A stretch of DNA of 64,000 bases. Source: Candidatus Staskawiczbacteria bacterium. GTDB lineage: Bacteria; Patescibacteriota; Minisyncoccia; Minisyncoccales; Staskawiczbacteraceae. The stretch's first letter is position 1. Every line of letters starts with the position of its first letter. The notes beneath the pieces were generated by a model. The model was not told the origin of the DNA. It was given only the letters and a program-made list of their open reading frames with translations, and did not search any database. A program made the position numbers and the translations under genes. Below are positions 479 to 63,850 of this stretch, piece after piece. The DNA lies in contig CAIKWD010000026.1 in assembly GCA_903831095.1 (NCBI GenBank), positions 29,290 through 93,289 of the forward strand, written 5' to 3'.

Positions 479-931
479 CTATTTTACTTTAGATAAATAT
501 TTGTTTTGTAAATTTTCCATTTCCTCTGCTTCTTTTTCTGTTTTCTCGTCCCGGTTTTGCCGAGGATCCTCGACATAGTCGGGATGGTCATATCCGCATA
601 AGTGCAAAATCCCATGGACAAAAACTTTTATCATTTCACTTTTTACGGTCACCTTATATTTCTTGGCGTTTTCCTTAACTACATCCGGGCAAATAATAAT
701 CTCTCCCAAATAACCTTTTTCTGCACTGTCCTTTAACTCAAAAGAAAGCACATCTGTCGGTTTGTCTTTTCCGCGGAATTTTTTATTAAGCTTTTTTATT
801 TCTGCTTTTCCAACAAAAGCCAGAGACAACGTTTCTGTTACTCTATTTTCGCCTTTTAATACAATTTTTGCAACTGTGGAAAAGTTTTTTTTATCCACAC
901 TATATTTTGTAAGGTTGTTTATCTCTATCAT
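479..931 (-). CDS. ybeY: Endoribonuclease YbeY (rRNA maturation factor)
   Basis: 150 aa with the H-x-x-x-H-x-x-x-x-x-H zinc motif HGILHLCGYDH. It carries a GC-rich palindromic insert at 549-585. Confidence 0.9.
   Translation of the reverse strand: MIEINNLTKYSVDKKNFSTVAKIVLKGENRVTETLSLAFVGKAEIKKLNKKFRGKDKPTDVLSFELKDSAEKGYLGEIIICPDVVKENAKKYKVTVKSEMIKVFVHGILHLCGYDHPDYVEDPRQNRDEKTEKEAEEMENLQNKYLSKVK
549..585. repeat. GC-rich palindromic mini-element, family 2, copy C (in-frame in ybeY; encodes DYVEDPRQNRDE)
   Basis: tcccggttttgccgaggatcctcgacatagtcggga shares the core CGAGGATCCTCGAC and the TCCCG/CGGGA flanks with the copy at 47064-47105. It corresponds to a roughly 13-aa insertion relative to E. 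coli YbeY. Confidence 0.75.
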
Positions 932-2322: not shown

Positions 2323-3609
2323 TTACTTTTTTGAAATTTTTTCTTTCATCTCTTCAACTACTTTGTCTAACTTTATTTCCTTCTGGACTCCTGTTTCCAT
2401 GTCTCTTAAAGTAATAAATTCTTCCAAGGCTTCCTTCTGTCCAAATATCAGAACCCACTTTATATTCATTTTGTTTGCGGTTCTTAACTGAGCTTTCAAG
2501 GAATCTTTGGAAAACGACTCTGCTACTGGAATTTTAGCATCTCTAAATTCTTCAAACAACTTCATACTCTTTCTCTTTGCCATTTGTCCAAGCTGGGCCA
2601 AGAATATTTTTGGCTCTTCCTGTTTTGGACCAGTTTTCATTTCCCTGGTTTTCATCAAACTTATTATTCTTTCCATGCCAGCGGCAGCTCCACAACCTGG
2701 AGTTTCCCTTCCACCCAGCATCTTTGATAGGTTATCATATCTTCCTCCACCAATCAATGTCCCAAGCGATTTTCCATCTTCCGAAGTCTCAACAATTTCA
2801 AAAACAGTTTTTGTATAATAATCCAAACCCCTTACTAAATATGGATTCAAAGTAAAAGGCAATTCCAACTCGTCTAAAAATTCCAAAACTTCTTTAAAGT
2901 GTGCATGGCATTTTTCACAAAGGTGTTCTGTTATCTGCGGAGCGCCTGCTTTCACTCTTTGGCACTTTTCTTCCTTGCAGTCTAAAATTCTCAATGGGTT
3001 TTCTTTCAGCCTTCTCTGGCAATCTGGACACAAAGATGATCTCCTTGATTTAAAATAGCTAGACAAAATCTTTTTAAAATATGGCCTGCATTCAGAATCT
3101 CCAATTGAATTGATTTCAATGGATAAATTCTTGAATCCCAATTCTTTCAAAACGTCATAGCTCATTTGTATGACTTGACTGTCTATAGAAGGATTTTGTT
3201 CACCTATAACTTCAAATCCAAACTGGTGAAACTGTCTAAATCTTCCTGCTTGTGGCCTTTCATACCTAAAAAATGGGCCAATATACCAAAGCTTAACTGG
3301 TTGAGGCAAGTTATGCATTCCATGTTCTAAATAACTTCTCATAACTGGAGCTGTACCTTCTGGCCTTAAAGAAACCAGGTCTCCGCCTTTTGTGCGAAAT
3401 GTGTACATTTCCTTCCCAACAATGTCTGTATCATCTCCAACAGCTTTTTGAAAAACTTCAGCATATTCCAAAATTGGAGTTTCAATTTTCTCAAAACTGT
3501 AATAATTAGCAACTGACTCAACTCCCTTTTGGACCTTTTTAAAATATACCTGGTCTTCAGGAAGTACATCGTGCATTCCGGTTAAGTTTTGAAAATTTAA
3601 TTTTGCCAT
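2323..3609 (-). CDS. hisS: Histidyl-tRNA synthetase
   Basis: 428 aa with class II motifs (LRPEGTAPVMRSY, GGGRYD). The insertion domain contains an unusual Cys cluster. Confidence 0.9.
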   Translation of the reverse strand: MAKLNFQNLTGMHDVLPEDQVYFKKVQKGVESVANYYSFEKIETPILEYAEVFQKAVGDDTDIVGKEMYTFRTKGGDLVSLRPEGTAPVMRSYLEHGMHNLPQPVKLWYIGPFFRYERPQAGRFRQFHQFGFEVIGEQNPSIDSQVIQMSYDVLKELGFKNLSIEINSIGDSECRPYFKKILSSYFKSRRSSLCPDCQRRLKENPLRILDCKEEKCQRVKAGAPQITEHLCEKCHAHFKEVLEFLDELELPFTLNPYLVRGLDYYTKTVFEIVETSEDGKSLGTLIGGGRYDNLSKMLGGRETPGCGAAAGMERIISLMKTREMKTGPKQEEPKIFLAQLGQMAKRKSMKLFEEFRDAKIPVAESFSKDSLKAQLRTANKMNIKWVLIFGQKEALEEFITLRDMETGVQKEIKLDKVVEEMKEKISKK

Positions 3610-10321: not shown

Positions 10322-12052
10322 ATGAGCAATGAAATACAAAAAATAATAAGAAGAAGCCCAGACCCTAAACTTATTGAGGATGCTTTTGAATTTGCGACAG
10401 AATCATACAAGGACAGATTTAGATTTTCTGGAGAAAACTATATCATACATGCAGTAAGAGTAGCTCAAGCATTAGATAAGATGGACCTTGATCCAACAAC
10501 AATTGCTTTTGGAATACTGCATGACGTAATGGACGATATTCCAGATTCTGCAAAAAATATTGAAATAAAAGAAATTGAAAAAAAATTTGGCAAAGAAATA
10601 TGTCGACTGCTGGAAAAAATTTCAGCAGTTAGCAGGGTAAGATATTCCTTATCAATTGGAATAAAAGAAAAGAAAACATTCACCAGGGAAAAAATTGAAA
10701 ATCTTCGAAGAATGTTTTTAGCTTTGGCTGGAGATATAAGAGTTGTTTTAGTTGAACTTCTTTCAAGGCTAGATGGATTAAACCATTTAAATCGCCTGCC
10801 AAATGACCAACAAAGGCTTTACGCGCTTGAAACGCTTAAAATTTTTGTCCCAGTTGCCAATAGGCTTGGACTATCTGAAATAAGAAGAAACCTTGAAGAT
10901 GTGGCTTTTTCCTATTTGTTCCCAGAAAAATTCAAATGGATCAAAGAAAATATAAAAGAACAATATGAGGAAAGAGAAAAGTATTTGAAAAAATTCATAC
11001 CTTACCTAAAAAAAATACTCCTAAAGGAAAGAGTAAAAATTGTAGACATAAACTACAGGGCAAAATCATATTGGAGCACCTATCAAAAATTAATCAGGCA
11101 TGAAATGGATTTTAACAAAATTCATGATTTACTGGCCCTACGCATAATAGCTGCTGACGTAGGAAGTTGCTATAAAACTCTTGGCATTATCCACAAGCAT
11201 TTCAAGCCAATTTCTGGGGAAATAAATGACTATATAGCCAAACCAAAACTAAACGGATATAGATCGCTTCATACAACTGTTTTTTCGCAAGAAGGAAAAA
11301 TAACAGAAATACAAATCAGAACTGAAGAAATGCACAAGGAAGCAGAATTTGGAGTTTGCGCTCACTGGTCTTACAAAGAAAGAATTGATTTACAAAAAGA
11401 AGGACAAAATTTTGAATGGCTTAAAAATGTGCCCGACTTTTGGAAAACCTTTAAAATAGACTTTTTCCCAAGCAAGGTTTTTTCCTTCACTCCAAAGGGA
11501 GATGTTATTGTTTTACCAAAAGGATCAACTCCAGTTGATTTTGCATATGCAGTTCATTCAGACATTGGAAACCATTGTGAATTGTCAAAAATAGGCGGTA
11601 GAATCGTACAATTAAACCACATTTTGGAAAATGGAGACGTGGTAGAAGTTACAGTTAATAAAAATAAAAAACCATCAAAAGATTGGCTAAGATTTGTCAA
11701 AACGTCTTTAGCAAAGTCACACATAAAAAAATTAACTGATGAGGACAATTCTGGTTTTAAATTCCCACTTCCTGGGTTTATAAGAAGAAGAATCACTGAA
11801 TTTTCTGAGGCTTCAAAAAAAAGACAGGAAGAAAAACAAAAAGTTGAAGAAGGAAAAATTCGCCATATTTATCTTGCTGGGCAAAAAGGAATGCTTATAC
11901 ATGTGGCAAAATGCTGTAATCCCCAACCTGGAGATAACGTTGGCGCCTATTTAGCCAAAAATAGGTCAGCGGTTTTACATAAAGTTTCCTGCGCTAATTT
12001 CAAAAAAATAGTCGAGAAATTTCCAGAAAAAGTCATTGAGGCTTCTTGGTAA
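10322..12052 (+). CDS. rel: (p)ppGpp synthetase/hydrolase RelA/SpoT family (short form)
   Basis: 576 aa with an HD domain (HDVMDD), a RelA/SpoT synthetase domain and a TGS domain (GDVIVLPKGSTPVDFAYAVHSDIG). Confidence 0.85.
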   Translation: MSNEIQKIIRRSPDPKLIEDAFEFATESYKDRFRFSGENYIIHAVRVAQALDKMDLDPTTIAFGILHDVMDDIPDSAKNIEIKEIEKKFGKEICRLLEKISAVSRVRYSLSIGIKEKKTFTREKIENLRRMFLALAGDIRVVLVELLSRLDGLNHLNRLPNDQQRLYALETLKIFVPVANRLGLSEIRRNLEDVAFSYLFPEKFKWIKENIKEQYEEREKYLKKFIPYLKKILLKERVKIVDINYRAKSYWSTYQKLIRHEMDFNKIHDLLALRIIAADVGSCYKTLGIIHKHFKPISGEINDYIAKPKLNGYRSLHTTVFSQEGKITEIQIRTEEMHKEAEFGVCAHWSYKERIDLQKEGQNFEWLKNVPDFWKTFKIDFFPSKVFSFTPKGDVIVLPKGSTPVDFAYAVHSDIGNHCELSKIGGRIVQLNHILENGDVVEVTVNKNKKPSKDWLRFVKTSLAKSHIKKLTDEDNSGFKFPLPGFIRRRITEFSEASKKRQEEKQKVEEGKIRHIYLAGQKGMLIHVAKCCNPQPGDNVGAYLAKNRSAVLHKVSCANFKKIVEKFPEKVIEASW

Positions 12053-12106: not shown

Positions 12107-12190
12107 GCCGAGGTGATGAAATTGGCAAACATGCCAGACTCAAAATCTGGTGCCCTTAAAAGCTTGAGGGTTCAAGTCCCTCCCTCGGCA
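12107..12190 (+). tRNA. tRNA-Leu (anticodon CAA), class II with a long variable arm
   Basis: Acceptor stem GCCGAGG/CCTCGGC. Anticodon stem-loop CCAGA-CTCAAAA-TCTGG gives anticodon CAA. Long variable arm, T-arm GGTTCAAGTCC, discriminator A; CCA is not encoded. Confidence 0.85.
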
Positions 12191-12220
12191 CACTTTACTG
12201 TACTCAGTACAGGCAACTAA

Positions 12221-12245
12221 AACCCCGCTCAGCGGGGCTTTTATT
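12221..12245. terminator. Bidirectional intrinsic terminator CCCCGC-TCA-GCGGGG shared by tRNA-Leu (+) and the minus-strand operon
   Basis: A 6-bp GC stem 12223-12237 with T-runs on both strands, preceded by a second small hairpin CTGTAC-TCA-GTACAG. It lies between the convergent tRNA and the MBL gene. Confidence 0.7.
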
Positions 12246-18255: not shown

Positions 18256-20735
18256 TAAATTACTATGTTAATTAATTTGTTTGGTACGAAAACTATTTTT
18301 TTAACTTCAACTTCACCTATCAAAGCTTTTATTTTTTCAGACTTCATAACTATTTTTTCAGCTTCCTTTTGAGTCAGCCCAGCCTTTGCATTTATTTTAT
18401 CTCTAACTTTTCCATTTATCTGCACAATTAAAAGTACTTCTTGATCTTCAATTAATTTCTCGTCATATTTTGGCCACTTCTGCAAACTGCACATTTCCTT
18501 CAGTCCAGCGTTGGCCCAAAGTTCTTCAGCTAAATGCGGAGCAAAAGGAGAAAGAATAATTAAAAAGTTTGCCAAGTCCTTTTTATCCAAACCTGTGGCA
18601 GAAACTTGTCCCGCGGAGCGGGATCCCGTTACACGGGACCACTCATTTACAAATTCCATCATCGCACTTACAGAAGTATTAAATTTCATCAATTCAATAT
18701 CTTCTGCAACTTTCTTTACTGTCTTATGCAAAATCTTTTTCAATCCTTCTTCAGTTTTTACTGCAGCAGTTTTTTGCGATGCTAAATTATAAATCTTTTC
18801 CACAAATCTCCTGCATCCAACAACTCCTTTTGTATCCCAAGGAATCATTTGTTCAAATGGACCCATAAACATTTCATAAATTCTCAACGTGTCGGCTCCA
18901 TATTCTTTTACAATTACGTCTGGGTTAATAACATTCCCCTTAGACTTTGACATTTTAATTCCCCCTTCACCCAAAACCATTCCATGTGAGGTCCTCTTTT
19001 TATAGGGCTCAGATCCAATAGACAAAGGTACAGCTTTGATATCCCACAAAAATTTAAAAATAAATCTGGAATATAAAAGATGCAAAGTTGTATGTTCCAT
19101 TCCACCATTATACCAATCAACTGGAAGCCAATATTTGGCTAGAGATTCATCAACTAACTTTTTACTATTTTTAGGATCTATATATCTTAAAAAATACCAG
19201 TTAGAACCTGCCCAATTTGGCATAGTGTCGGTTTCCCTTTGAGCTGGACCTCCACATTTAGGACATTCTGTTTCTACCCAATTTTTAATCAAAGACAAAG
19301 GAGATTCTCCCGTATCTGTTGGCTTATATTTTTTTACATTGGGTAATTTAACCGGTAAATCTTTTTCAAAAACTGACTGCCATCCACACTTCTTACAAAA
19401 AATCATTGGTATTGGCTCACCCCAATAATGCTGTCTAGAAAAAACCCAATCTCTCAGTTTATAGCTTATTTTTGGTTGGGCAAATCCTTTTGAAGAAAGC
19501 CAAGCAATTATCAAGGGTCTCGCCTGAGCAGATTTCATACCGTCAAATTGAACAGAATTATAAAGAATTCCATCTCCTTCAAAACACTCCTCCAAATTCT
19601 TAACTTTCTGAGTAAGCAATTCATCGTCCGGTTTTATGGAAGTTCTTAATGGAATGCCATATTTCTTTGCCATTTTAAAATCTCTCTTGTCATGGGCATC
19701 AGCAAATACTGCTCCGGTTCCATATTGCTCTAAAACAAAGTCAGCAGTCCAAACAGGCATTTCCTCATTTGTTGCAGGATTCCTTACCAAAATACCCTTT
19801 AGCTGAACACCAGTTACATCTTTATCTTGATTGGTCCTATCCATATCAGAAACATTTTTAGCTTCCTCTCGATACTTTAAAACTTCATCAATGTTTTCAA
19901 TTCTGCTTTTATGAGTGTCTATAAAACTACTTCCAGGAGCTACAATTAAAAAAGTCCCAGAAAATATAGTATCTATTCTGGTTGTAAAAACATCTATAGA
20001 TTCTTCAACTCCTTCAATTGGAAACTTAACTAGGGCTCCATGAGATTCTCCAATCCAGTCCTTCTGCTGTGTTTTAATTTTTTCCAAATAATCTACATTT
20101 TCCAAATCTCTAATTAGCCTGTCAGCATAATTTGTAATTTTTATCATCCACTGCTCTTTTTCTCTTTTTTCAACTTTTGTCCCACATCTTTCGCAATTTC
20201 CATTTACCACTTCTTCGTTAGCCAAACCAATCAAACATGACGGACACCAATTTATATTAATTTTACTTTTATATGCCAACCCATTTTTAAACAACTGAAT
20301 AAAAATCCACTGAGTCCATTTATAATACTTTGGATCTGTAGTATCAATTTCTCTTGACCAGTCAAAAGACCACCCCATTCTCTGCATCTGTTCTTTAAAA
20401 TATTCAACATTCTTTTTTGTGACAACAGAAGGATGGACTCCTTTCTTAATTGCATAGTTTTCCGTAGGCAAACCAAAAGCATCCCAACCCATTGGATACA
20501 AAACATTAAACCCCTGCATTCTCTTCTTGCGAGCTATTATATCTAAGGCTGTATAACTCCTACAGTGTCCCACATGAAGCCCATCTCCAGAAGGGTATGG
20601 AAACTCCACCATGGCATAGAATTTCTTCTTCTTAGAGCCGTTTTTAGCCTTAAAAACGCTCGAATTAAACCACTTTTCCTGCCATTTTGCCTCTATTTTT
20701 TTAGGATTGTATTTTACCATATAGTTATCCTCCAT
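18255..20735 (-). CDS. leuS: Leucyl-tRNA synthetase
   Basis: 826 aa with the HIGH-like motif PYPSGDGLHVGH and KMSKS (KMSKSKGN). It contains the GC-rich palindromic element at 18608-18640. Confidence 0.9.
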   Translation of the reverse strand: MEDNYMVKYNPKKIEAKWQEKWFNSSVFKAKNGSKKKKFYAMVEFPYPSGDGLHVGHCRSYTALDIIARKKRMQGFNVLYPMGWDAFGLPTENYAIKKGVHPSVVTKKNVEYFKEQMQRMGWSFDWSREIDTTDPKYYKWTQWIFIQLFKNGLAYKSKININWCPSCLIGLANEEVVNGNCERCGTKVEKREKEQWMIKITNYADRLIRDLENVDYLEKIKTQQKDWIGESHGALVKFPIEGVEESIDVFTTRIDTIFSGTFLIVAPGSSFIDTHKSRIENIDEVLKYREEAKNVSDMDRTNQDKDVTGVQLKGILVRNPATNEEMPVWTADFVLEQYGTGAVFADAHDKRDFKMAKKYGIPLRTSIKPDDELLTQKVKNLEECFEGDGILYNSVQFDGMKSAQARPLIIAWLSSKGFAQPKISYKLRDWVFSRQHYWGEPIPMIFCKKCGWQSVFEKDLPVKLPNVKKYKPTDTGESPLSLIKNWVETECPKCGGPAQRETDTMPNWAGSNWYFLRYIDPKNSKKLVDESLAKYWLPVDWYNGGMEHTTLHLLYSRFIFKFLWDIKAVPLSIGSEPYKKRTSHGMVLGEGGIKMSKSKGNVINPDVIVKEYGADTLRIYEMFMGPFEQMIPWDTKGVVGCRRFVEKIYNLASQKTAAVKTEEGLKKILHKTVKKVAEDIELMKFNTSVSAMMEFVNEWSRVTGSRSAGQVSATGLDKKDLANFLIILSPFAPHLAEELWANAGLKEMCSLQKWPKYDEKLIEDQEVLLIVQINGKVRDKINAKAGLTQKEAEKIVMKSEKIKALIGEVEVKKIVFVPNKLINIVI
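18608..18640. repeat. GC-rich palindromic mini-element, family 1, copy A (in-frame in leuS)
   Basis: tgtcccgcggagcgggatcccgttacacgggac. The first 23 nt are identical to the copy at 37075-37108. It encodes SRVTGSRSAGQ. Confidence 0.8.
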
Positions 20736-36506: not shown

Positions 36507-37211
36507 CTAATTTATTACTGTTCCTATAAAAGGCTTATTATTTAAAAAGTCTTCCAGCCTTTCCAAGTTTTTACCATTGATCATAGCCACTTTCAATTTT
36601 AAACTGGCAGCTAGTTTGGAAGCCTTAGGATCAAACGGCATTGAAAGCCCAGGTGACCACTTGTCTCCAACAATTCTCAAAAAGCTTTTCCAATCAATTT
36701 CTTTAAATGGTTTGGCATCTGGAAATTCATTGGGATTTTTGTCGTATACATAATCAACATTTGTAAGATTGATTATAGTTTTTATATTATTATTCTTTGC
36801 CATTAAAACAGCATCATAATCTGTTGACCACCCTGGCTTCCACCCTGCCCCAACAATAATATCCTTAGTAGTTTTTACTTTTACATTTGGATCTGTGACA
36901 ACTTTTGGAAAACAATTTCCAGCAAACATTTGTTTTATAACTTCGGCATTCAACCTGGTAATGTTAATTCCCATCCAATCCCTATCTTGGCTTTTTGCGC
37001 CAAACTCCAAAAGCGCCTTTTGATAGTTTCTGGCAACTTTTCCTCCCCCAACTAAAATAAAAAACCTATATTTCTGTCCCGCGGAGCGGGATCCCGTATA
37101 GCGGGACAAAGAATATTTGAAAGTCTTTAAAAAACCTATGTCTATCTCATTTGGAGCCACTAACGACCCGCCCAGAGATATTATTATTGTTTCCTTTATG
37201 TTTTTAGCCAT
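36507..37211 (-). CDS. pyrH: Amino-acid kinase family protein, UMP kinase-like (archaeal-type PyrH)
   Basis: 234 aa with SLGGS and LVGGG motifs. It contains the GC-rich palindromic element at 37075-37108. Confidence 0.6.
   Translation of the reverse strand: MAKNIKETIIISLGGSLVAPNEIDIGFLKTFKYSLSRYTGSRSAGQKYRFFILVGGGKVARNYQKALLEFGAKSQDRDWMGINITRLNAEVIKQMFAGNCFPKVVTDPNVKVKTTKDIIVGAGWKPGWSTDYDAVLMAKNNNIKTIINLTNVDYVYDKNPNEFPDAKPFKEIDWKSFLRIVGDKWSPGLSMPFDPKASKLAASLKLKVAMINGKNLERLEDFLNNKPFIGTVIN
37075..37108. repeat. GC-rich palindromic mini-element, family 1, copy B (in-frame in the pyrH-like gene)
   Basis: tgtcccgcggagcgggatcccgtatagcgggaca. It contains a perfect 7-bp inverted repeat GTCCCGC/GCGGGAC flanking the palindrome CGGGATCCCG, and encodes SRYTGSRSAGQ. 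Confidence 0.8.
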
Positions 37212-37326: not shown

Positions 37327-37812
37327 CTATTTTTTTTCACGACAGAGTCGAACACAAGGATATATTTGTCCTTTGGTAAATCTACTATTATTACTAGAAC
37401 AACTGCCTAAGCCCCCAATTTCATCATATGCGTATGTAACAACATTGCCACCTTCTTCTTTTCCGCTCCAAGGCGAAGAAGACCAATAATATTTCCAAAG
37501 TGAAAAACCACTAGGCTTCATAGTCCTTAGCGCCCGATCAAGTTCATCTTCGGTCGGCAACCTCCAACTTTTTCCACACGCAAGATTTTGGACTTCTATG
37601 CACTTCTGCAAAGATAACTCAGGAGTTTCTCCAAAATCTAAACTCCACTCCAATGGAATGTAAATCATGCCTTCTGCCCAAGTCGGCTCTTCCCGAAGAC
37701 ACTTCTTGAATGCAGCTACCCATTTTTCGGGATTTTTACCGAGAAGATGCTTGTCAATCTCTTCACGCAGTCCATGATATTCACGGAGTGCATCACTGAG
37801 CATTTTTTTCAT
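37327..37812 (-). CDS. DUF1566 (Lcl C-terminal domain)-like protein
   Basis: 161 aa. WRLPTEDEL...YWSSS...VRLCR follows the DUF1566 pattern. G+C is higher than its neighbours. Confidence 0.55.
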   Translation of the reverse strand: MKKMLSDALREYHGLREEIDKHLLGKNPEKWVAAFKKCLREEPTWAEGMIYIPLEWSLDFGETPELSLQKCIEVQNLACGKSWRLPTEDELDRALRTMKPSGFSLWKYYWSSSPWSGKEEGGNVVTYAYDEIGGLGSCSSNNSRFTKGQIYPCVRLCREKK

Positions 37813-38010: not shown

Positions 38011-38487
38011 ATGATAATAAAAGATATGAAGATATATTCGGAAAATAAAAAGGCTGGATTTAATTATGAAATATTAGAACGATTTGAGTCGGGGCTGGTT
38101 TTGTTTGGCCAAGAAGTAAAGTCTATAAGAACTGGGCATATAAATTTAGCTGGATCTTTTGTAACTTTAAAGCCACAAACTGGCGGAGGTTATCCAGAGC
38201 CATACTTGGTGGGAGTAAAAATACCTCCCTACCAGCCAAATAATGCTGGGGCAGACTACAATGAAGACCGCCCACGAAAGCTTCTTTTGAACAAAAAAGA
38301 GATAGTTTATCTTGCAGGAAAGTCAAAACAAGCGGGTTTTTCACTTATACCCTTGAAAATTTATGACAACAGTGGTAGAATAAAACTCGAATTCGGATTA
38401 GCTAAAGGAAAGAAGAAATACGACAAAAAAGAGAAAATAAAGAAGCGCGACGTAGAGCGCGAAGTTAATCGTGAATTATCGGCCTAA
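38011..38487 (+). CDS. smpB: SsrA-binding protein SmpB
   Basis: 158 aa; KKAGFNYEILERFESGLVLFGQEVKSIRTG is the SmpB signature. The true start may be the Met at 38026. Confidence 0.9.
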   Translation: MIIKDMKIYSENKKAGFNYEILERFESGLVLFGQEVKSIRTGHINLAGSFVTLKPQTGGGYPEPYLVGVKIPPYQPNNAGADYNEDRPRKLLLNKKEIVYLAGKSKQAGFSLIPLKIYDNSGRIKLEFGLAKGKKKYDKKEKIKKRDVEREVNRELSA

Positions 38488-38497
38488 TCGCCCACAT

Positions 38498-38852
38498 GGG
38501 GATGATTGTTTCGATGGATTGTTCTTTAAAGTAAGGCAAGTTGAGCTTTCTTGGGGCTCATTAATCTCCTGAGAAAAAACATAATTGCTAATTTATTTAA
38601 CTTTAATAAGCAACCAGCTTTAGCTTTTGCTTAAGCTGCATCCTTACCGATGATTCCTAATGGGCGGATCAAGGGTGTTATATTATTAGGATAGGCATCT
38701 TCATTCTCCGGGGAAATGCCAAAACTAAGGAGATAAAGCATTAAAAATTTTGCTAATTTTTTATTTAATGCTCGAAAAACAAAATCAGCTAAACTTGTAG
38801 AATTGCTTTTGAGAATTTTTCAGACGCGGTTTCAATACCGCCATCTCCACCA
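38498..38852 (+). ncRNA. ssrA: tmRNA (ssrA), about 355 nt
   Basis: 5' GGGGAUGAUUGUUUCGAUGG and 3' GACGCGGUUUCAAUACCGCCAUCUCCACCA (T-arm, acceptor, CCA). Acceptor pairing GGGGAUG/CAUCUCC. A candidate tag ORF reads ...GCU AAU UUA UUU AAC UUU AAU AAG CAA CCA GCU UUA GCU UUU GCU UAA (ANLFNFNKQPALAFA). It lies immediately downstream of smpB. Confidence 0.85.
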
Positions 38853-39577: not shown

Positions 39578-39687
39578 ATTTAAACCGCGACGAATAAAGA
39601 GTTCAGCGTAAATTGGGCCTAGATGTATTAGATTATAATCAGCCCAACTTCCGAAGCAATCTTGTTCGCCTCGCTCACAAGACCGTG
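39578..39687 (+). promoter_or_regulatory. Structured rpmI-rplT spacer / rplT leader with hairpin AATTGGGC(39611-39618)/GCCCAA(39642-39647), including the GTG start
   Basis: A 107-nt spacer unusual for this operon. It is about 95% identical over roughly 90 nt to the inverted copy at 47126-47240. Confidence 0.6.
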
Positions 39688-40032
39688 TCACGAGTAAAAA
39701 GATCAGTACAAGCCCGCAAGCACAGGAAAAACATTTTAAAGCATGCTAAGGGTTTTAGACAAGCAAGAAATTCTAAATTTAAAGCCGCTAAAGATGCCTT
39801 GAGGCATGCTTGGTCTTATGCATTTAGAGACAGGAGAGTGAAAAAGAGAACCTTCAGAAACCTCTGGAACTTACAAATTAATGCTTTGGCCAGGGAAAAC
39901 GGCATAACATACAGCAGGTTCATTGAAGGATTAAAAAAGCACAAGATAGAATTGGACAGAAAAGTTTTATCAGAATTGGCAAACACTTATCCAGAAGTAT
40001 TTATAAAAATAGTGGAAGAAGTAAAAAAATAA
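39685..40032 (+). CDS. rplT: 50S ribosomal protein L20
   Basis: (V)SRVKRSVQARKHRKNILKHAKGFRQ matches the L20 N-terminus from the GTG at 39685. The ORF-track TTG start at 39613 adds a non-homologous extension and is rejected. Confidence 0.85.
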   Translation: MSRVKRSVQARKHRKNILKHAKGFRQARNSKFKAAKDALRHAWSYAFRDRRVKKRTFRNLWNLQINALARENGITYSRFIEGLKKHKIELDRKVLSELANTYPEVFIKIVEEVKK

Positions 40033-40544: not shown

Positions 40545-42308
40545 TTATTTAAAATAATCTAATAATTTTTCAACTGACAATGTATTTATTATATCTCCTT
40601 TTTCTGCCCATCCACGTCTGGCTTGCCCCACTCCATATTCCATAAAGCTTAGGTGCTCTTTTTGATGGCTATCTGTGTTAATAATCATTTTTATACCCTT
40701 TGCTTTTGCTCTCCTAATATTAAACCCATTTAAATCTAACCTTTTTGGAGTGGCATTAATTTCTAAAACAGTCCCAGTTTCTTTGGCAACTTCTAAAATC
40801 TTTTCAAAATCCATTTGATACTCTTCCCTCTCGTTAATAAGTCTACCCGTTGGATGAGAAATAATATCAACATTAGGATTCTGCATCGCTTTTACAATCC
40901 TGTCTGTCATTTCCTTTTGTCCCATTTTCATTGAAGAATGTACTCCAGCAATAACATAATCTAACTTTTCCAAAACTTCGTCCTTAATATCAATCGAGCC
41001 GTCATTTAAAATATTCGCCTCACATCCATGCAATATTATAAACTTAATTCCTTGCTTTTTTAATTTATTATTTATTTCTTCTATTATCTCATGTTGTTTC
41101 AAAAGTCCTTTTTCATCTAAACCATCATCAATTTTCAAAAATTTAGTATGGTCTGAAATCCCAATATACTCATATTCTAAATCTATGGCTTTTTGTGCTA
41201 TTTCTTCAATTAATTTTTCAGCATTATTTGAATGACGAGCTTCATCCGGCTTTGAATGGCAATGTAGATCACCCTTTATATCTTTTAACTCTACTAAAAT
41301 TGGTAAAAATCCATTTAAAGCAGCTTTTATTTCTCCGTCATCCTCACGCAGTTCTGGAGCTATATATGACAATCCAAGAACATTATAAACATCTTCTTCT
41401 GTCTTGCCAGCTATTTGTTTATTACCTTTGAAAATTCCATATTCAGAAAGCTTCAGACCTTTTGTAATGGCAATTTTTCTAGTGGCAATATTATGTTCTT
41501 TAGATCCTGTAAAATATTGAAGAGCCGAACCAAAACTTTCTTTCTTTACCATTCTCAAATCAACATCAAAACCCATTTTTAGCCTAACAGAGCATTTTGT
41601 TAGACCCTCGGCCCAAACTTTTTTAACTTCAGGCAAGTTAACAAAAAAATCAGCTGTTTTCTTGGAATTTTCCGATACAACCAAAATATCAATATCCCCT
41701 ATTGTTTCCTTTTGACGCCTAACTGAACCTGCCACGCTTATTTCTTTTATTTCTTTTTGTTTTTTTAAGCTGTTTATTATTTCCTTAACAGTTGGCATAA
41801 TATCTCCCAATAAAAATCTTCCTTTGTTCTGCTTTAGAAATTCCAAACCCTGCACAATATTCTTTTCTGTTTTTTCTCCAAAACCAAATAAAGGAGCTAT
41901 TTTATGTGCTTTAACGGCCTTAGTTAAATCTTTCAAATCCTTAATCCCCAATTTTTGATAAAGAGTTTTTATTTTCTTAGGGCCAATTCCTTCAACTTTC
42001 AGTAACTCGTCTACCTTCAAAGGGAGTTTATTTTTAAGATCTTCAAAATGCTTTATTCTCCCAGTTTTTAAATATTCTTCAATTCCTTTGGCTATTCCTT
42101 CTCCAACTCCCGGGATTTCTTCAAGCGCCTTTAATCCGCCATTTCTATATATCTCCGCTACATCTTCCTTGTAATTTTCCAATAAAAGAGCTACTTTCCT
42201 ATATGCATAAGGTTTAAAACTAACTCCATCTATTTCCAAATAGTCTGCTATTTCAAAAAATATTTTAGCTAATTCCTGATTCTTCATAAAATAATTACGG
42301 CTCAACAA
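40545..42308 (-). CDS. polX: DNA polymerase X family protein with a C-terminal PHP domain
   Basis: 587 aa with HhH motifs, a pol-beta nucleotidyltransferase core (GSVRRQKETIGDIDILV) and a PHP domain (HCHSKPD...). Confidence 0.85.
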   Translation of the reverse strand: MLSRNYFMKNQELAKIFFEIADYLEIDGVSFKPYAYRKVALLLENYKEDVAEIYRNGGLKALEEIPGVGEGIAKGIEEYLKTGRIKHFEDLKNKLPLKVDELLKVEGIGPKKIKTLYQKLGIKDLKDLTKAVKAHKIAPLFGFGEKTEKNIVQGLEFLKQNKGRFLLGDIMPTVKEIINSLKKQKEIKEISVAGSVRRQKETIGDIDILVVSENSKKTADFFVNLPEVKKVWAEGLTKCSVRLKMGFDVDLRMVKKESFGSALQYFTGSKEHNIATRKIAITKGLKLSEYGIFKGNKQIAGKTEEDVYNVLGLSYIAPELREDDGEIKAALNGFLPILVELKDIKGDLHCHSKPDEARHSNNAEKLIEEIAQKAIDLEYEYIGISDHTKFLKIDDGLDEKGLLKQHEIIEEINNKLKKQGIKFIILHGCEANILNDGSIDIKDEVLEKLDYVIAGVHSSMKMGQKEMTDRIVKAMQNPNVDIISHPTGRLINEREEYQMDFEKILEVAKETGTVLEINATPKRLDLNGFNIRRAKAKGIKMIINTDSHQKEHLSFMEYGVGQARRGWAEKGDIINTLSVEKLLDYFK

Positions 42309-46655: not shown

Positions 46656-47129
46656 TTAAGCTTTGTAGACTTTATATCCTTCGTGAACTTTCTTTTCAAT
46701 TTTCATACCTACAGAATCTCCTTTTTTAGCTGAAGCAACTTCCACATGTTCAATTTGCATTGATTTTACTTTCTGCTCAAAATCTGTATCTTGCCCGCCA
46801 ACTACCCTAATTATTTCCCCGTCTTTCAGCGGAGCTTCCAACTCAATAACTGCTACCTCAATATTTGAAAAATAATGAGTTATTCGGCCAATTATTTTAC
46901 CCTCTGGCTCTACCTTGGGCATTATAGATTTTGACGCAATCTTTTTAACTGCTTTTTTGACTGCTTTTTTAGTAGCCTTTTTTACAGTTTTTTTAACTGC
47001 CTTCTTAGTTGTTTTTTTGACTGCCTTTTTTATAATTTTTTTCTTCTTAGAAACTACTTTCTTTCCCGATTTCTTCGAGGATCCTCGACTGCTTTGCAGT
47101 CGGGACTTTTTTGCTTTTGCTTTGGACAC
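46656..47129 (-). CDS. Fusion of a histone H1-like lysine-rich N-terminus (KKAVKK repeats) with an EF-Tu domain-2-like beta-barrel C-terminal domain; GTG start
   Basis: 157 aa. Tandem KKAVKKT repeats precede KIIGRITHYFSNIEVAVIELEAPLKDGEIIRVVG...SMQIEHVEVASAKKGDSVGMKI. The start codon and leader are copied from rplT. Confidence 0.55.
   Translation of the reverse strand: MSKAKAKKSRLQSSRGSSKKSGKKVVSKKKKIIKKAVKKTTKKAVKKTVKKATKKAVKKAVKKIASKSIMPKVEPEGKIIGRITHYFSNIEVAVIELEAPLKDGEIIRVVGGQDTDFEQKVKSMQIEHVEVASAKKGDSVGMKIEKKVHEGYKVYKA
46930..47040. repeat. Tandem approximately 12-21-nt DNA repeats encoding the KKAVKK lysine-rich repeats
   Basis: Repeated units such as tttttgactgcctttttt are visible in the sequence. 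Confidence 0.6.
47064..47105. repeat. GC-rich palindromic mini-element, family 2, copy D (in-frame in the H1-like gene; encodes SRLQSSRGSSKKSG)
   Basis: tcccgatttcttcgaggatcctcgactgctttgcagtcggga. It has a 14-nt perfect palindrome TCGAGGATCCTCGA flanked by TCCCGA/TCGGGA. Confidence 0.75.
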
Positions 47130-47240
47130 GGTCTTGTGAGCGAGGCGAACAAGATTGCTTCGGAAATTGGGCTAATTATAATCTTATACATCTAGGCCCA
47201 ATTTACGCGGAAATACTTTGTTCTGTCGCGGTTATTTACT
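47126..47240 (-). promoter_or_regulatory. Inverted duplicate of the rplT leader (rpmI-rplT spacer, hairpin and GTG start), fused upstream of the H1-like/EndoQ operon
   Basis: The reverse complement of 47126-47238 aligns with 39583-39690. Two 22-nt and 31-nt blocks are identical, and the substitutions cluster in the hairpin loop. The stem AAATTGGGC(47164-47172)/GCCCAATTT(47196-47204) is a perfect 9 bp. Confidence 0.7.
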
Positions 47241-47241
47241 T

Positions 47242-47403
47242 AATAATTTGTACATATGACCTTTGCCTTTATATTATCACTATACGAAAATTTTTCAAAC
47301 AAAAACCGCCTTCGTAAGAAGCCGGGCTTTGAAGAGGGGGATAATAATTTACAGCGATCTCGGTGAACTTCTCGAGCTGAATTCGGACAATGAATCCAGA
47401 CAT
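47242..47403 (-). CDS. Candidate small ORF (53 aa) with a strong AGGAGG SD; not in the ORF track (below its size cutoff)
   Basis: AGGAGG is followed 9 nt later by ATG, giving MSGFIVRIQLEKFTEIAVNYYPPSSKPGFLRRRFLFEKFSYSDNIKAKVICTNY. The ORF runs through a terminator-like hairpin and ends exactly where the L20-leader copy begins, so it may instead be a non-coding region. Confidence 0.25.
47296..47330 (-). terminator. Terminator-like hairpin with a GUAA tetraloop (CCGCCTTC-GUAA-GAAGCCGGG) and a T-run on the minus strand
   Basis: Read from the sequence. It lies about 180 nt downstream of the 47506-47859 gene and upstream of the L20-leader copy. Confidence 0.45.
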
Positions 47404-53505: not shown

Positions 53506-54063
53506 CTATTTCCCTAGGGCTTTTAACGCGATTTTTATACGCTCTTCGCTATTTTTAATATTATCTGGTACATGGTTTAAAGCATCTTTGGCTTGCTGTT
53601 TGGAAAAACCAAGTTGCATTAAAGCTCCTTCTGCCTCGTCGGCATTATCTTTCTTTTGCCCTAGCATTTTTATTTTGCCTGTAAGTTCTAAAATAATTGT
53701 CATAGCTTTTTTAGAACCAATTCCAGGTATGCCTTCAAAAATCTTTTCGTCCTGTTTTAAAATCCTGTCTTTTATCTTATCCAAAGAACCCAAGGCTGAA
53801 ATATCCAAAGCAGACTTTGGACCAACTCCGCGTATGTCCATTAAAGTTTCAAAAAATTCCAAACCTTCGTAAGTTGGAAAACCATAAAGATCCAAAGCTT
53901 CCTCCTTCACATTTTGGTATATAAAAAGCTTGATTGGCTCGCCAATTTCTGGTAAAGTTATCATGCTCTGGCGGGACAAAAAAACCTTGTAGCCAATATT
54001 GGCCACTTCAACTATAATAAATTTGTCACGCTTTAGTATGATTTTTCCGTATAAATAAGATAT
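53506..54063 (-). CDS. ruvA: Holliday junction DNA helicase RuvA
   Basis: MISYLYGKIILK...VEVANIGYKVFL OB domain, HhH motifs (GIGSKKA, IRGVGPKSA) and a C-terminal domain. The start is set at the internal Met; the ORF track gives 54099. Confidence 0.85.
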   Translation of the reverse strand: MSYLYGKIILKRDKFIIVEVANIGYKVFLSRQSMITLPEIGEPIKLFIYQNVKEEALDLYGFPTYEGLEFFETLMDIRGVGPKSALDISALGSLDKIKDRILKQDEKIFEGIPGIGSKKAMTIILELTGKIKMLGQKKDNADEAEGALMQLGFSKQQAKDALNHVPDNIKNSEERIKIALKALGK

Positions 54064-54087: not shown

Positions 54088-56076
54088 TTGTATATGCAAT
54101 TTGAAGTAAAATCAAAGTTCAAGCCAAAGGGCGACCAGCCTCAGGCAATAAAAAAATTGACTGAGAACTTAAAAGCCGGGGTTAAAGACCAGGTGCTTTT
54201 GGGCGTTACTGGGTCTGGAAAGACTTTTACAATGGCTAAAGTCATAGAAAAAATACAAAAACCCACTTTGGTCATTTCCCCCAACAAAACTTTAGCTGCC
54301 CAGCTTTACCAGGAATTCAAAGAATTTTTCCCAAACAATGCTGTGCACTATTTTGTCTCATATTACGACTACTATCAGCCTGAAGCCTATATTCCCCAGT
54401 CAGACACATATATAGAGAAAGATGCAAAAATAAACGAAGAAATAGACAGGCTAAGGCATGCGGCAGTCCAAGATGTGACTATGAGAAAAGATGTAATTGT
54501 TGTAGCTTCGGTTTCCTGCATTTACAACATTGGCTCACCAGAAAACTATGAAAATGTTTCGCTAGAAATAACAAAAAACCAAAAAATAAAAAGAAAAGAT
54601 TTTTTAATTCTGTTAAACAATTTGCAGTACCAAAGAAATGATATTGATTTTAAACCTGGCATGTTTCGCGTGCGCGGAGACATTGTAGAAATATATATTG
54701 TAACAGGCGAAAAAATAATTCGCGTGGAATTTTTTGGAGATACCATAGACAAAATTTCAGAAACTTTGCCAGGATTTGGACAAAAGTATAAAAGTTCTGG
54801 AGACAAGCTCAGACTCTTCCCCGCTCACTTTTGGGTGACACCTCAAGACAAAGTTAACATTGCCATAAACAATATAAAGCTGGAATTAGAACAAAGATTA
54901 AAAGAATTAAAAAAACAAAATAAATTAGTTGAAGCTCAAAGGCTTGAGCAAAAAACAAATTACGATTTAGAAATGCTTAAGGAAACTGGCTGGTGCAACG
55001 GCATAGAAAACTATTCCAGCCATATGGAATTTAGAAAACCAGGCCAGGCCCCATTTTCCCTGGTTGATTATTTTGATTATTTTAACCCTTCGACGGGCTC
55101 AGAGCAGGCCCAGGGCGGTTCTTTAATGTTTATAGACGAGTCGCATATTTCTATTTCCCAAATTAGGGCCATGGCAATACAAGACAAAATAAGAAAAGGC
55201 ACTTTAATAGACTTTGGATTCCGCCTGCCTTCAGCCATAGATAACCGGCCCTTAACTTTTGCTGAGTTTGAAAAGCGCCAAAAGCAAACAATTTATGTTT
55301 CTGCTACGCCAGCTACTTTTGAAAAACAAAAAGCTGGCAAAAATATTATTGAGCAAATTATTAGACCTACAGGATTATTAGAACCAGTTATTGAAATTAA
55401 AAAAACTGACAACCAAATAAAAGACTTAATAGAAGAAATAAAAAAACAGGTTGAGAAAAAACACAGGACTTTGGTTGTGACAATTACAAAAAGACTAGCT
55501 GAAGAAATAACCAATTATCTTGTTGACCGGGGCATTAAAACCCAATATCTACACTCGGAAGTAAAAACCATGGAACGACCTAAAATACTAAAGGAATTTC
55601 GTGAGGGCAAATATGACGTTTTAGTGGGCATAAACCTTTTAAGAGAAGGCTTAGATTTGCCAGAGGTTTCTTTAGTTGCAATTTTAGATGCCGACAAGGA
55701 GGGTTTTTTAAGAAACGAAACAACCTTAATTCAAACAATGGGCCGAGCTGCCCGTCATCAAAATGGCAGGATAATTTTGTATGCAGACAAAACAACCATG
55801 TCTATGGAGTCTGCAATTAACGAAATAAATAGAAGAAGAAAAATACAACAGGCATACAACAAAAAACACAACATAACTCCCAAAACAATTATTTCTGGCA
55901 TACGCGAATGGGGATTTTCCAAAAAAGAAGACATTGATTCGGAATTCTGGATGATTCAAGACAAAGAAACTCTAGAGAAAGAAATGAAAATAGCTGCCAA
56001 AAATTTAGACTTTGAGCGGGCAGCGGAAATTCGCGATTTGATTAAAAAATTAGAGACAACAAAAAAGCCCGTTTAA
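54088..56076 (+). CDS. uvrB: Excinuclease ABC subunit B
   Basis: 662 aa with a Walker A (GVTGSGKTFTMA), the beta-hairpin region, helicase motifs and a C-terminal UvrC-binding domain (FERAAEIRDLIKKLE). Confidence 0.9.
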   Translation: MYMQFEVKSKFKPKGDQPQAIKKLTENLKAGVKDQVLLGVTGSGKTFTMAKVIEKIQKPTLVISPNKTLAAQLYQEFKEFFPNNAVHYFVSYYDYYQPEAYIPQSDTYIEKDAKINEEIDRLRHAAVQDVTMRKDVIVVASVSCIYNIGSPENYENVSLEITKNQKIKRKDFLILLNNLQYQRNDIDFKPGMFRVRGDIVEIYIVTGEKIIRVEFFGDTIDKISETLPGFGQKYKSSGDKLRLFPAHFWVTPQDKVNIAINNIKLELEQRLKELKKQNKLVEAQRLEQKTNYDLEMLKETGWCNGIENYSSHMEFRKPGQAPFSLVDYFDYFNPSTGSEQAQGGSLMFIDESHISISQIRAMAIQDKIRKGTLIDFGFRLPSAIDNRPLTFAEFEKRQKQTIYVSATPATFEKQKAGKNIIEQIIRPTGLLEPVIEIKKTDNQIKDLIEEIKKQVEKKHRTLVVTITKRLAEEITNYLVDRGIKTQYLHSEVKTMERPKILKEFREGKYDVLVGINLLREGLDLPEVSLVAILDADKEGFLRNETTLIQTMGRAARHQNGRIILYADKTTMSMESAINEINRRRKIQQAYNKKHNITPKTIISGIREWGFSKKEDIDSEFWMIQDKETLEKEMKIAAKNLDFERAAEIRDLIKKLETTKKPV

Positions 56077-63779: not shown

Positions 63780-63850
63780 ATTTTATAATATCATATTGAA
63801 GAAACAAAAAAAATAACCCCGCTTGCCGAGGTTATTTAATAATCTAATAA

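Follow-up and report, generated by a model that had tools for sequence, protein, structure and literature searches.

Short double-hairpin elements inserted in frame in genes of Staskawiczbacteria and other Patescibacteria are probably non-autonomous mobile DNA

When the same short piece of DNA lies within two unrelated protein-coding genes of one genome and is read there in two different frames, the question arises whether it is the DNA or the encoded peptide that is being kept or spread, and by which route. This question is raised by a 42-nt sequence at positions 47064–47105 of a 64,000-nt stretch of a Candidatus Staskawiczbacteria genome (assembly GCA_903831095.1, contig CAIKWD010000026.1; the whole stretch is referred to below as the window), where it is located in a gene for an H1-like protein and has a counterpart in ybeY. 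We call these two copies Family 2 (F2) and compare them with a second set of palindromic inserts in the same window, Family 1 (F1). The original prediction, made from the window sequence, had proposed selection or spread at the DNA level, either by a mobile element or by a recombination hot-spot, a common origin of both families, and a possible link of their central GGATCC to a restriction-modification or nicking specificity. Judged from sequence comparisons, the elements are probably non-autonomous selfish or mobile double-hairpin DNA that resides in the AT-rich, gene-dense genomes of Patescibacteria (Candidate Phyla Radiation, CPR) and is tolerated in protein loops.

The 42-nt copy reads TCCCGATTTCTTCGAGGATCCTCGACTGCTTTGCAGTCGGGA, letter for letter as originally quoted, and positions 47075–47088 within it form the perfect 14-nt palindrome TCGAGGATCCTCGA. 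With up to two mismatches allowed, this palindrome has one other match in the window, at 560–573 within ybeY; two matches thus stand against 0.03 expected, and a count of two was not attained in any of 100 shuffles. The 42-nt copy and the 36-nt copy at 549–584 have TCCCG-N7-CGAGGATCCTCGAC...AGTCGGGA in common, and the claim that one core is used in two frames was confirmed, as the minus strand reads SRLQSSRGSSKKSG within the H1-like gene but PDYVEDPRQNRD within ybeY. The H1-like gene (46656–47129, minus strand) encodes a protein of 157 aa whose N-terminal tail is rich in Lys and Ala and whose C-terminal barrel resembles EF-Tu domain 2 (PF03144 was found in homologues); the element begins 8 codons past the GTG start, and this copy is open in all six reading frames. 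In ybeY (479–931, minus strand, PF02130) the insert directly follows the HGxLHLxGYDH zinc motif. The two 30-nt Family-1 copies are situated at 18609–18638, in the anticodon-binding region of leucyl-tRNA synthetase (LeuRS; TCCCGC-GGA-GCGGGA followed by TCCCGT-TAC-ACGGGA), and at 37077–37106, inside the UMP kinase gene; both encode (V/Y)TGSRSAGQ, and the family consensus is TCCCGCGGAGCGGGATCCCGT(T/A)(A/T)(C/A)(A/G)CGGGA. All window copies are solitary and, because the window has a GC content of only about 34%, they stand out as sharp GC islands.

Comparison with orthologues indicated that such blocks are present or absent as precise units. The nearest relative of the window ybeY (P0123, locus L120) has flanks that are approximately 97% identical, with 2 of about 115 upstream bases differing, and is without exactly the 36 nt of the element (GACCA^CGA vs. 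GACCA[TCCCGA...CCGGGA]CGA), no duplication being visible. Among 21 YbeY homologues, 9 carry the peptide PD..EDPRQ.RD at this site, 8 are empty and 4 have different inserts a few codons away; filled and empty lineages are interleaved in a rough neighbour-joining tree, so that several gain or loss events are needed to account for this patchy distribution. In the AlphaFold2 (AF2) model of YbeY the insert is placed in a coil between helices and has the lowest per-residue model confidence (pLDDT) of the protein. The reverse situation, an empty site in the window, was found in the PolX/PHP gene (41407–41426, minus strand, ..AATAAA^CAAATA..) and in uvrB (55316–55338, plus strand), where the orthologues in loci L009 and L055, respectively, are filled by precise 42-nt Family-2 insertions. 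None of the allele pairs of ybeY, PolX and UvrB showed a target-site duplication. The ruvA site (53951–53977, minus strand) is less clear: the orthologue in L104 has a 42-nt Family-2 copy that is absent from the window, the window sequence at this place differs and the gap is not clean, and the sequence found there, TCCCGCCAGAGC..., may be the remnant of a decayed element. For the H1-like gene, the segment SRLQSSRGSS is absent from 18 of 18 aligned homologues, an empty state defined by protein alignment only. The 90% identity clusters of the four host proteins contained no length variants. Comparison of empty and filled orthologues placed the element termini at TCCCGA...TCGGGA, the same boundaries that had been drawn from the window sequence, and each polymorphism could represent either a gain or a precise loss. 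Among the matches listed in the scans described below, the flanks are enriched for T-(T/A)-G directly outside the element (positions −3 to −1), with G at −1 in 58% (F2) and 51% (F1) and as much as 72% T at −2, and in the asymmetric 42-nt form this bias is found mainly on the side of the short hairpin, which suggests a weak preference for insertion just 3' of T-(T/A)-G.

Each element is composed of two directly abutting GC-rich stem-loops with a total length of 30–45 nt. TCC and GGA are the first and last three bases of every unit, the stem comprises 6–10 bp with no or one bulged base, and the loop is usually 3 nt long; GGATCC is thus the junction of two units. Unit lengths are 15 nt in Family 1 (TCCCGC-NNN-GCGGGA), 18 nt in Family 2 (TCCCGA-x-NNN-x'-TCGAGGA and its mirror image) and 24 nt in the long Family-2 unit, all multiples of three. 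The 42-nt consensus fold is (((((((...)))).)))(((.(((((((...)))))))))), of which the window copy is without the innermost pair of the first hairpin: its hairpin 1 occupies 47064–47081 (TCCCGA-TTTCT-TCGAGGA, with a bulged A) and hairpin 2 extends over 47082–47105 (TCCTCGACTGC-TTT-GCAGTCGGGA, with a bulged T). Folded as DNA, the 42-nt form has its minimum free energy in this double hairpin, and the window copy does so as RNA as well (z = −4.4 to −5.3); for Family 1 the minimum consists of two perfect 6-bp stem-loops with triloops. Two folds of the 36-nt form are near-isoenergetic, and its reading as a double hairpin is based on the covariation of the closing pair in the 42-nt form and on the complementarity between the first and the last loop base of the 36-nt copies. 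In a set of 35 distinct copies of the 42-nt form, taken from different genomes, 98.5% of the cells are paired; the closing pair of hairpin 1 (pair 7–11) is C-G in 17, U-A in 10 and U-G in 3 copies, the four extra pairs of the long hairpin (26–29/33–36) have both sides changed in 5, 17, 7 and 2 sequences, and the covariation score was not reached in any of 500 shuffles. The exact search pattern itself imposes part of the stem invariance, so that only the free positions count as evidence.

The idea that both families form one superfamily was borne out, since they have architecture and termini in common, occupy the same sites in LeuRS and UMP kinase and occur joined in a hybrid. The LeuRS gene of L068 (73% identical) carries a 42-nt Family-2 copy exactly where the window has its 30-nt Family-1 copy (..TG^CCACTCATTTAC). 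Most of 120 UMP kinase homologues are empty at TTTG^CA(A/G)AAATAT, and the filled forms of this site comprise F1+F1 (window), an F1+F2 hybrid (L243; TCCCGCTACACGGGA/TCCTCGACGAAGTCGGGA) with a first hairpin that hardly differs from the one in the window, and a 45-nt long-F2+F2 form (L244). Copies nested in other copies were found at a single internal position, GAG^GATCC, twice in L078 and in L012. At positions outside the search patterns we also found a third stem variant, TCCGCC-NNN-GGCGGA, in doubled form, as well as double hairpins without GGATCC, e.g., at 6835 in L005, where the junction is GGACTC with a compensatory change from T-A to C-G, and other variants in L175 and L144.

Other GC-rich in-frame inserts of unlike sequence occupy the same or neighbouring loops, for instance in the ybeY gene of L241 at 10355–10400 (CCCGCCAGCAACGCTTCGCGTAGCGATGCGGG, peptide PASNASRSDAG) and in the UMP kinase homologues P0252, P0254, P0266, P0300, P0311 and others, with NPSTSLR.., PSAGSGF and PPSPSGFGVA among the peptides. 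They suggest that several further families of small insertion elements exist in CPR genes.

To which organisms the elements belong, and how they are read, was assessed with pattern scans. The exact Family-2 pattern TCCCG-N5-7-CGRGGATCCYCG-N5-13-CGGGA, applied to one genome per GTDB species, returned at least 119 loci, and a Family-1 scan of JGI metagenomes returned at least 120; stem invariance and GGATCC frequency are biased among these loci, as they were picked by exact patterns. The possibility that only the four window copies exist, with no polymorphism, is contradicted by these numbers and by the empty ybeY allele. The following statements refer to the matches listed. Low-GC Family-2 matches are overwhelmingly from Patescibacteria (Saccharibacteria, Yanofsky-, Staskawicz-, Sungii-, Lipton-, Wildermuth-, Nealson- and Buchanan-bacteria), Poribacteria have 33- and 36-nt forms with longer palindromic flanks, and the sporadic matches in genomes of >65% GC look like chance. 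The names of homologues, too, point to Candidatus Staskawiczbacteria as the source of the window. When copies at least 300 nt from the locus end in loci of ≤50% GC were considered, 35 of 81 Family-2 and 36 of 70 Family-1 copies were inside open reading frames (ORFs) of at least 150 aa, with lengths of 42, 36, 33 or 30 nt and a single exception of 35 nt. In the window the in-frame hosts are ybeY, LeuRS, UMP kinase and the H1-like gene; in relatives they are PolX, UvrB, RuvA, Mur ligase and others. All three frames are in use (20/7/8 copies for F2, 23/8/5 for F1), giving the peptides SR..RGSS..SG, PD..EDPR..RD and VP..SRILD..GT from Family 2 and SR.AGSR.AG, PA.RDPA.RD and VP.SGIP..GT from Family 1, and the asymmetric 42-nt form is present in both orientations. 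Mur ligase genes carry elements in 6 of 8 loci at no fewer than four different sites, and one loop that is common to three lineages contains the element in frames or orientations that differ between them. Intergenic copies occur just past a tRNA/tmRNA-like 3' end (L083) and between genes (L118), and single units also occur on their own. Peptide selection therefore cannot explain the conservation, and the claim that the DNA is conserved rather than the peptide gained support from about 70 intragenic copies in three frames and both orientations. No Family-2 match was obtained in the IMG/VR viral contigs, and a phage origin was rejected, the single Family-1 match there being a chance-like tandem peptide repeat of 65% GC.

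In other CPR genomes, the double-hairpin cores are often located inside short 7-mer tandem arrays (AAGTTCC, CAAATTC, GGAAATT, GAAAATT, GGAATTT) that stay in phase across the core, e.g., in L018 at 2878–2915 and 3070–3145 and in L083 at 30–115; such arrays also occur alone within genes (e.g., QFPIS in the L104 Mur ligase). These arrays may represent favoured targets, traces left by repeated rounds of insertion and excision, or a portion of a longer composite element.

Under the mobile-DNA reading, the element would spread as a hairpin-folded single strand that a trans-acting enzyme cuts and rejoins at the feet of the hairpins, and would thus appear and disappear precisely, without target-site duplication, at many unrelated sites. 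A copy that happened to enter a permissive surface loop would persist as a short hydrophilic peptide insert, and the survival of copies inside genes may be explained by unit lengths that are multiples of three and by a GC-rich sequence that is almost stop-free in every frame. A candidate class for the enzyme would be the HUH Y1 transposases, in particular those resembling the tyrosine transposases associated with repetitive extragenic palindromic (REP) sequences (RAYT). The related locus L244 contains one such gene (45–770), which lies beside the UMP kinase gene and encodes a 241-aa protein resembling Y1_Tnp and REP-associated tyrosine transposases, with a HIH motif, a Pfam Y1_Tnp score of 30.5 bits (above the cut-off) and no PDB relative detected by sequence. 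This gene goes with a different hairpin, TTGGAAGG-N5-CCTTCCAA, and as a mobilising enzyme for the present elements it is the only lead, and a weak one. One such hairpin, TTGGAAGG-CCCGT-CCTTCCAA, lies in frame within its own coding sequence at about 243–263, and an inverted copy with the loop ACGGG follows approximately 25 nt past the stop codon, at about 793–813, which may be its cognate repeat.

Several points weigh against mobile DNA as the explanation. The L244 protein reaches 34.5 bits against the NCBIfam model for REP-associated tyrosine transposases, below the cut-off of 80, its gene is not flanked by TCC...GGA hairpins, and no gene of this type was found in the window, with one instance only in 1.69 Mb of loci. 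Canonical IS200/IS605 elements have guide sequences and hairpins in direct orientation, both of which are absent here, and the window holds just four copies. The sites in ybeY, LeuRS, UMP kinase and Mur ligase are occupied repeatedly, which is equally compatible with old insertions that were later converted or precisely lost and with homologous recombination following the uptake of DNA. In addition, the invariance of the stems is to some extent a product of the exact search patterns, and templated regeneration of palindromes would also give covariation, which is therefore no proof of selection.

A narrower version, which we consider doubtful, holds that the true mobile unit is the single TCC...GGA hairpin of 15, 18 or 24 nt, cut and rejoined as folded single-stranded DNA at its GGA/TCC feet by a RAYT-like HUH Y1 enzyme; this would be a REP/RAYT-type system that, by becoming frame-neutral and stop-free, is suited to CPR genomes with hardly any intergenic space. 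If it were true, such a system could colonise coding sequence, swap modules in place and excise seamlessly, and the surface loops of core proteins would be continuously remodelled across the radiation.

Two other gene types were observed near the elements. In Poribacteria, TnpB-type genes (OrfB_IS605 plus Cas12f1-like TNB domains; L017 4056–5189, L023 1794–2930 and 4503–5639, L080 5792–6946) are located 30–190 nt from 33-nt elements or other palindromes, and these insertion sequence (IS) copies look to land beside palindromic repeats. The element was rejected as an end of the Poribacteria IS, being outside the region common to two IS copies, the second of which abuts a different palindrome. 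Genes for four-helix-bundle proteins of the 23S_rRNA_IVP or bAvd-like type occur in 5 copies at 4 loci (L005 4969–5352; L058 5074–5460; L063 3055–3393 and 6379–6717; L099 261–650), within 1–3 kb of elements and without fixed spacing.

Spread by homologous recombination between genomes and between copies, with hot spots of recombination or gene conversion at which hairpins are replaced in situ, new sites being rare and most insertions ancient, is unlikely as a complete explanation and at the same time a serious partial alternative to transposition. CPR bacteria take up DNA, the competence gene ComEC is present in the related locus L241, different variants occupy the same sites in LeuRS, UMP kinase, ybeY and Mur ligase orthologues, and the F1+F2 hybrid has its first hairpin in common with the window copy, all of which is in line with such spread; GC clusters of yeast mitochondria, too, have been reported to move partly by recombination or conversion (PMC4478555). 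However, many unrelated host genes and intergenic sites are occupied, copies are nested within copies, and the core is near-identical across distant phyla including Poribacteria, which calls for some route to new, non-homologous sites. Of the original alternatives, spread at the DNA level is upheld by the presence/absence polymorphism, and the hot-spot stays in play as a partial alternative to transposition. A structural signal selected in place appears less probable still, whether it acted at the mRNA level, on translational pausing, RNase processing or stability, or at the DNA level, as a site bound by a protein or a signal for replication or recombination. The conserved and covarying stems, the stable folds (z from −3 to −5) and the vicinity of the H1-like copy to its start codon would be expected of a signal, but the elements are sporadic among close orthologues, to the point of being absent from a near-identical ybeY, their host genes and positions are unrelated, the asymmetric 42-nt form is found in both orientations, and no Rfam match was obtained (46900–47350 was searched at E ≤ 1, with no match at the element).

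The suggested link to restriction-modification or nicking, in which an enzyme specific for GGATCC or GATC would maintain the sites, comparable to HIP1 of cyanobacteria with its methyltransferase, gained no support and is rated very improbable. GGATCC is indeed central in Family 1, Family 2 and the TCCGCC variant, but it arises automatically where TCC...GGA units abut, the compensated double hairpins of L005, L175 and L144 do without it, and with 7 occurrences in the window vs. 6.4 expected, 4 of them within elements, it is neither enriched nor clearly avoided elsewhere; a scan of 10 of the approximately 64 window ORFs, a small part of one window and hence weak evidence, revealed no restriction-modification gene. 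Selection on the peptide, i.e., inserts serving as a small protein module or linker, would agree with the hydrophilic, loop-like character of the encoded peptides and with the predicted position of the YbeY insert in a coil, but is effectively refuted by frame usage, given that the same DNA yields unrelated peptides from three frames and both orientations and also sits between genes (L083, L118). Least probable of all is an artefact of cloning or assembly. It would be suggested by CGGGATCCCG, the Family-1 core, which matches a commercial sequence, the classical BamHI linker. An artefact is nonetheless effectively refuted: the exact ybeY protein with its insert was recovered from 15 contigs (NCBI, Logan and ENA assemblies), hundreds of in-frame copies with covarying loops come from independent shotgun projects, and the flanking hairpin arms are foreign to any linker. 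DNA-uptake sequences were considered and rejected, and so were CRISPR repeats, there being no spacer-separated array (the sole tandem case, L059, is without spacers). Translational bypass elements (byps) were likewise set aside, the intragenic lengths of 30, 33, 36 and 42 nt and the stop-free sequence in the frame used making them an improbable match.

Within the limited literature covered, the 14-mer TCGAGGATCCTCGA was met only as a cloning sequence, and we found no account of palindromic, in-frame or hairpin repeats in Patescibacteria/CPR; behaviour of this kind has precedents in other groups. Rickettsia palindromic elements (RPE), as PMC10969869 summarizes Ogata et al. 2000, are selfish palindromes inserted in frame in housekeeping genes of a small AT-rich genome, and the likeness lies in a palindromic repeat that enters unrelated genes in frame and is kept as an extra peptide segment. 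In that summary RPE are approximately 100–150 bp long, restricted to Rickettsia and tied to one conserved peptide and frame per family, whereas the elements described here are of 30–45 nt, are assembled from interchangeable units of 15–24 nt, use three frames and have a core common to several phyla. Mitochondrial GC clusters and double-hairpin elements (DHE), such as yeast GC42, the DHE of Allomyces and the repetitive hairpin elements (RHE) of sponges, are GC-rich hairpin repeats of 18–80 nt in AT-rich genomes with presence/absence polymorphism, occasional in-frame copies in genes and no known transposase (PMC4478555, PMC2800124). Conserved stems, variable loops and the merging and shuffling of modules are found in both, a resemblance in behaviour for which homology is not expected; the mitochondrial elements are organellar and mostly intergenic, the yeast clusters with AG/ACT flanking repeats, while those described here belong to another sequence family, occur in free-living or episymbiotic bacteria, are to about one half located in long ORFs (among the matches listed) and show no target duplication in the clean allele pairs.

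REP sequences and their doublets (REPIN) are similar in being short imperfect palindromes with one bulged base arranged as inverted doublets of two mirror-image hairpins. They differ in their extragenic position, as opposed to the often intragenic one of the present elements, in the 5' GTAG, in place of which only T-(T/A)-G enrichment was seen here, and in doublets of 70–110 nt with a spacer, features not found here. REP sequences also flank their own RAYT gene; the one RAYT-like gene observed, in the related contig L244, goes with a different hairpin. MITEs (miniature transposable elements with inverted repeats) typically measure 50–500 bp, duplicate their target and have the terminal inverted repeats of a parent IS, whereas the present elements are far shorter, left no duplication in the allele pairs and had no parent IS that we could find. 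Palindrome-associated transposable elements (PATE) derived from IS200/IS605 likewise depend on hairpins, cause no target duplication and prefer a short sequence on one side; IS200/IS605 elements, however, have a fixed 5' target of 4–5 nt, guide sequences and directly oriented subterminal hairpins, in contrast to the mere T-W-G bias, the lack of guide sequences, the mirror-image hairpins starting from nucleotide 1 and the far smaller size observed here. The small dispersed repeats (SDR) that Elhai et al. are said to have described from cyanobacteria in 2008, reportedly palindromes of 21–27 nt in genes and RNAs that nest in one another, are also very small, palindromic, intragenic and nested, and differ in sequence family and phylum. 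HIP1 is an 8-mer that spreads by point mutation and not as an inserted block; GGATCC, in comparison, is not over-represented in the window and is replaced in the variants named above, and enzymes of the kind that accompany HIP1 were looked for in the 10 scanned window proteins only.

If the mobile-DNA reading is correct, many essential proteins of CPR/Patescibacteria, among them aminoacyl-tRNA synthetases, YbeY, UvrB, RuvA, Mur ligases and UMP kinase, hold inserts of 10–15 residues that derive from selfish DNA and not from selection on the protein, which would bear on the interpretation of 'CPR-specific insertions' in alignments, phylogenies and predicted structures. Filled and empty sites would provide a sharp strain-level marker for the population genomics of uncultured lineages, and hairpins of about 15–18 nt would offer a very small, defined substrate for finding an enzyme that moves hairpin DNA without target duplication. 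The phenomenon known from RPE and mitochondrial GC clusters would then reach a large bacterial radiation, with modular swapping of hairpins at orthologous sites.

The H1-like gene has further repeats. Its Lys/Ala tail (46937–47044) contains a periodic repeat of 12 nt, seen as six overlapping 48-nt copies at 12-nt spacing, which encodes units of the KKAVKKT type, and the length of the tail is very variable among homologues. A stretch of 98 nt that is 92% identical occurs in inverted orientation at 39602–39699 (plus strand) and 47115–47212 (minus strand), corresponding to the intergenic leader between rpmI and rplT and to that of the H1-like gene, and running through GTGTC at each start codon. 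The Lys-rich protein and ribosomal protein L20 may thus have a promoter or leader in common, and possibly also regulation of the L20 type. The 98-nt leader had no Rfam match in the search given above and a fold z-score of only −1.5, and the region upstream of rplT in L009 aligns poorly with the window leader, making that alignment uninformative.

The Rfam matches of the whole window at the gathering threshold were a tmRNA (38498–38852, 110 bits) and one tRNA (12107–12190) only; smpB, called from position and synteny, is located just upstream of the tmRNA at 38011–38487. At 37691–37732, in a 161-aa ORF (37327–37812), there are 42 nt with the Family-2 termini TCCCGA...TCGGGA and no internal palindrome, which may have arisen by chance or be what is left of a completely decayed copy. 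Lastly, a hairpin family of three copies, AACCCCGCTNAGCGGGG(T/C)TT, lies at apparent gene ends (1535–1560, 12215–12240 and 63809–63834); these are probably intrinsic terminators, and their stem, CCCCGC/GCGGGG, resembles the Family-1 unit.

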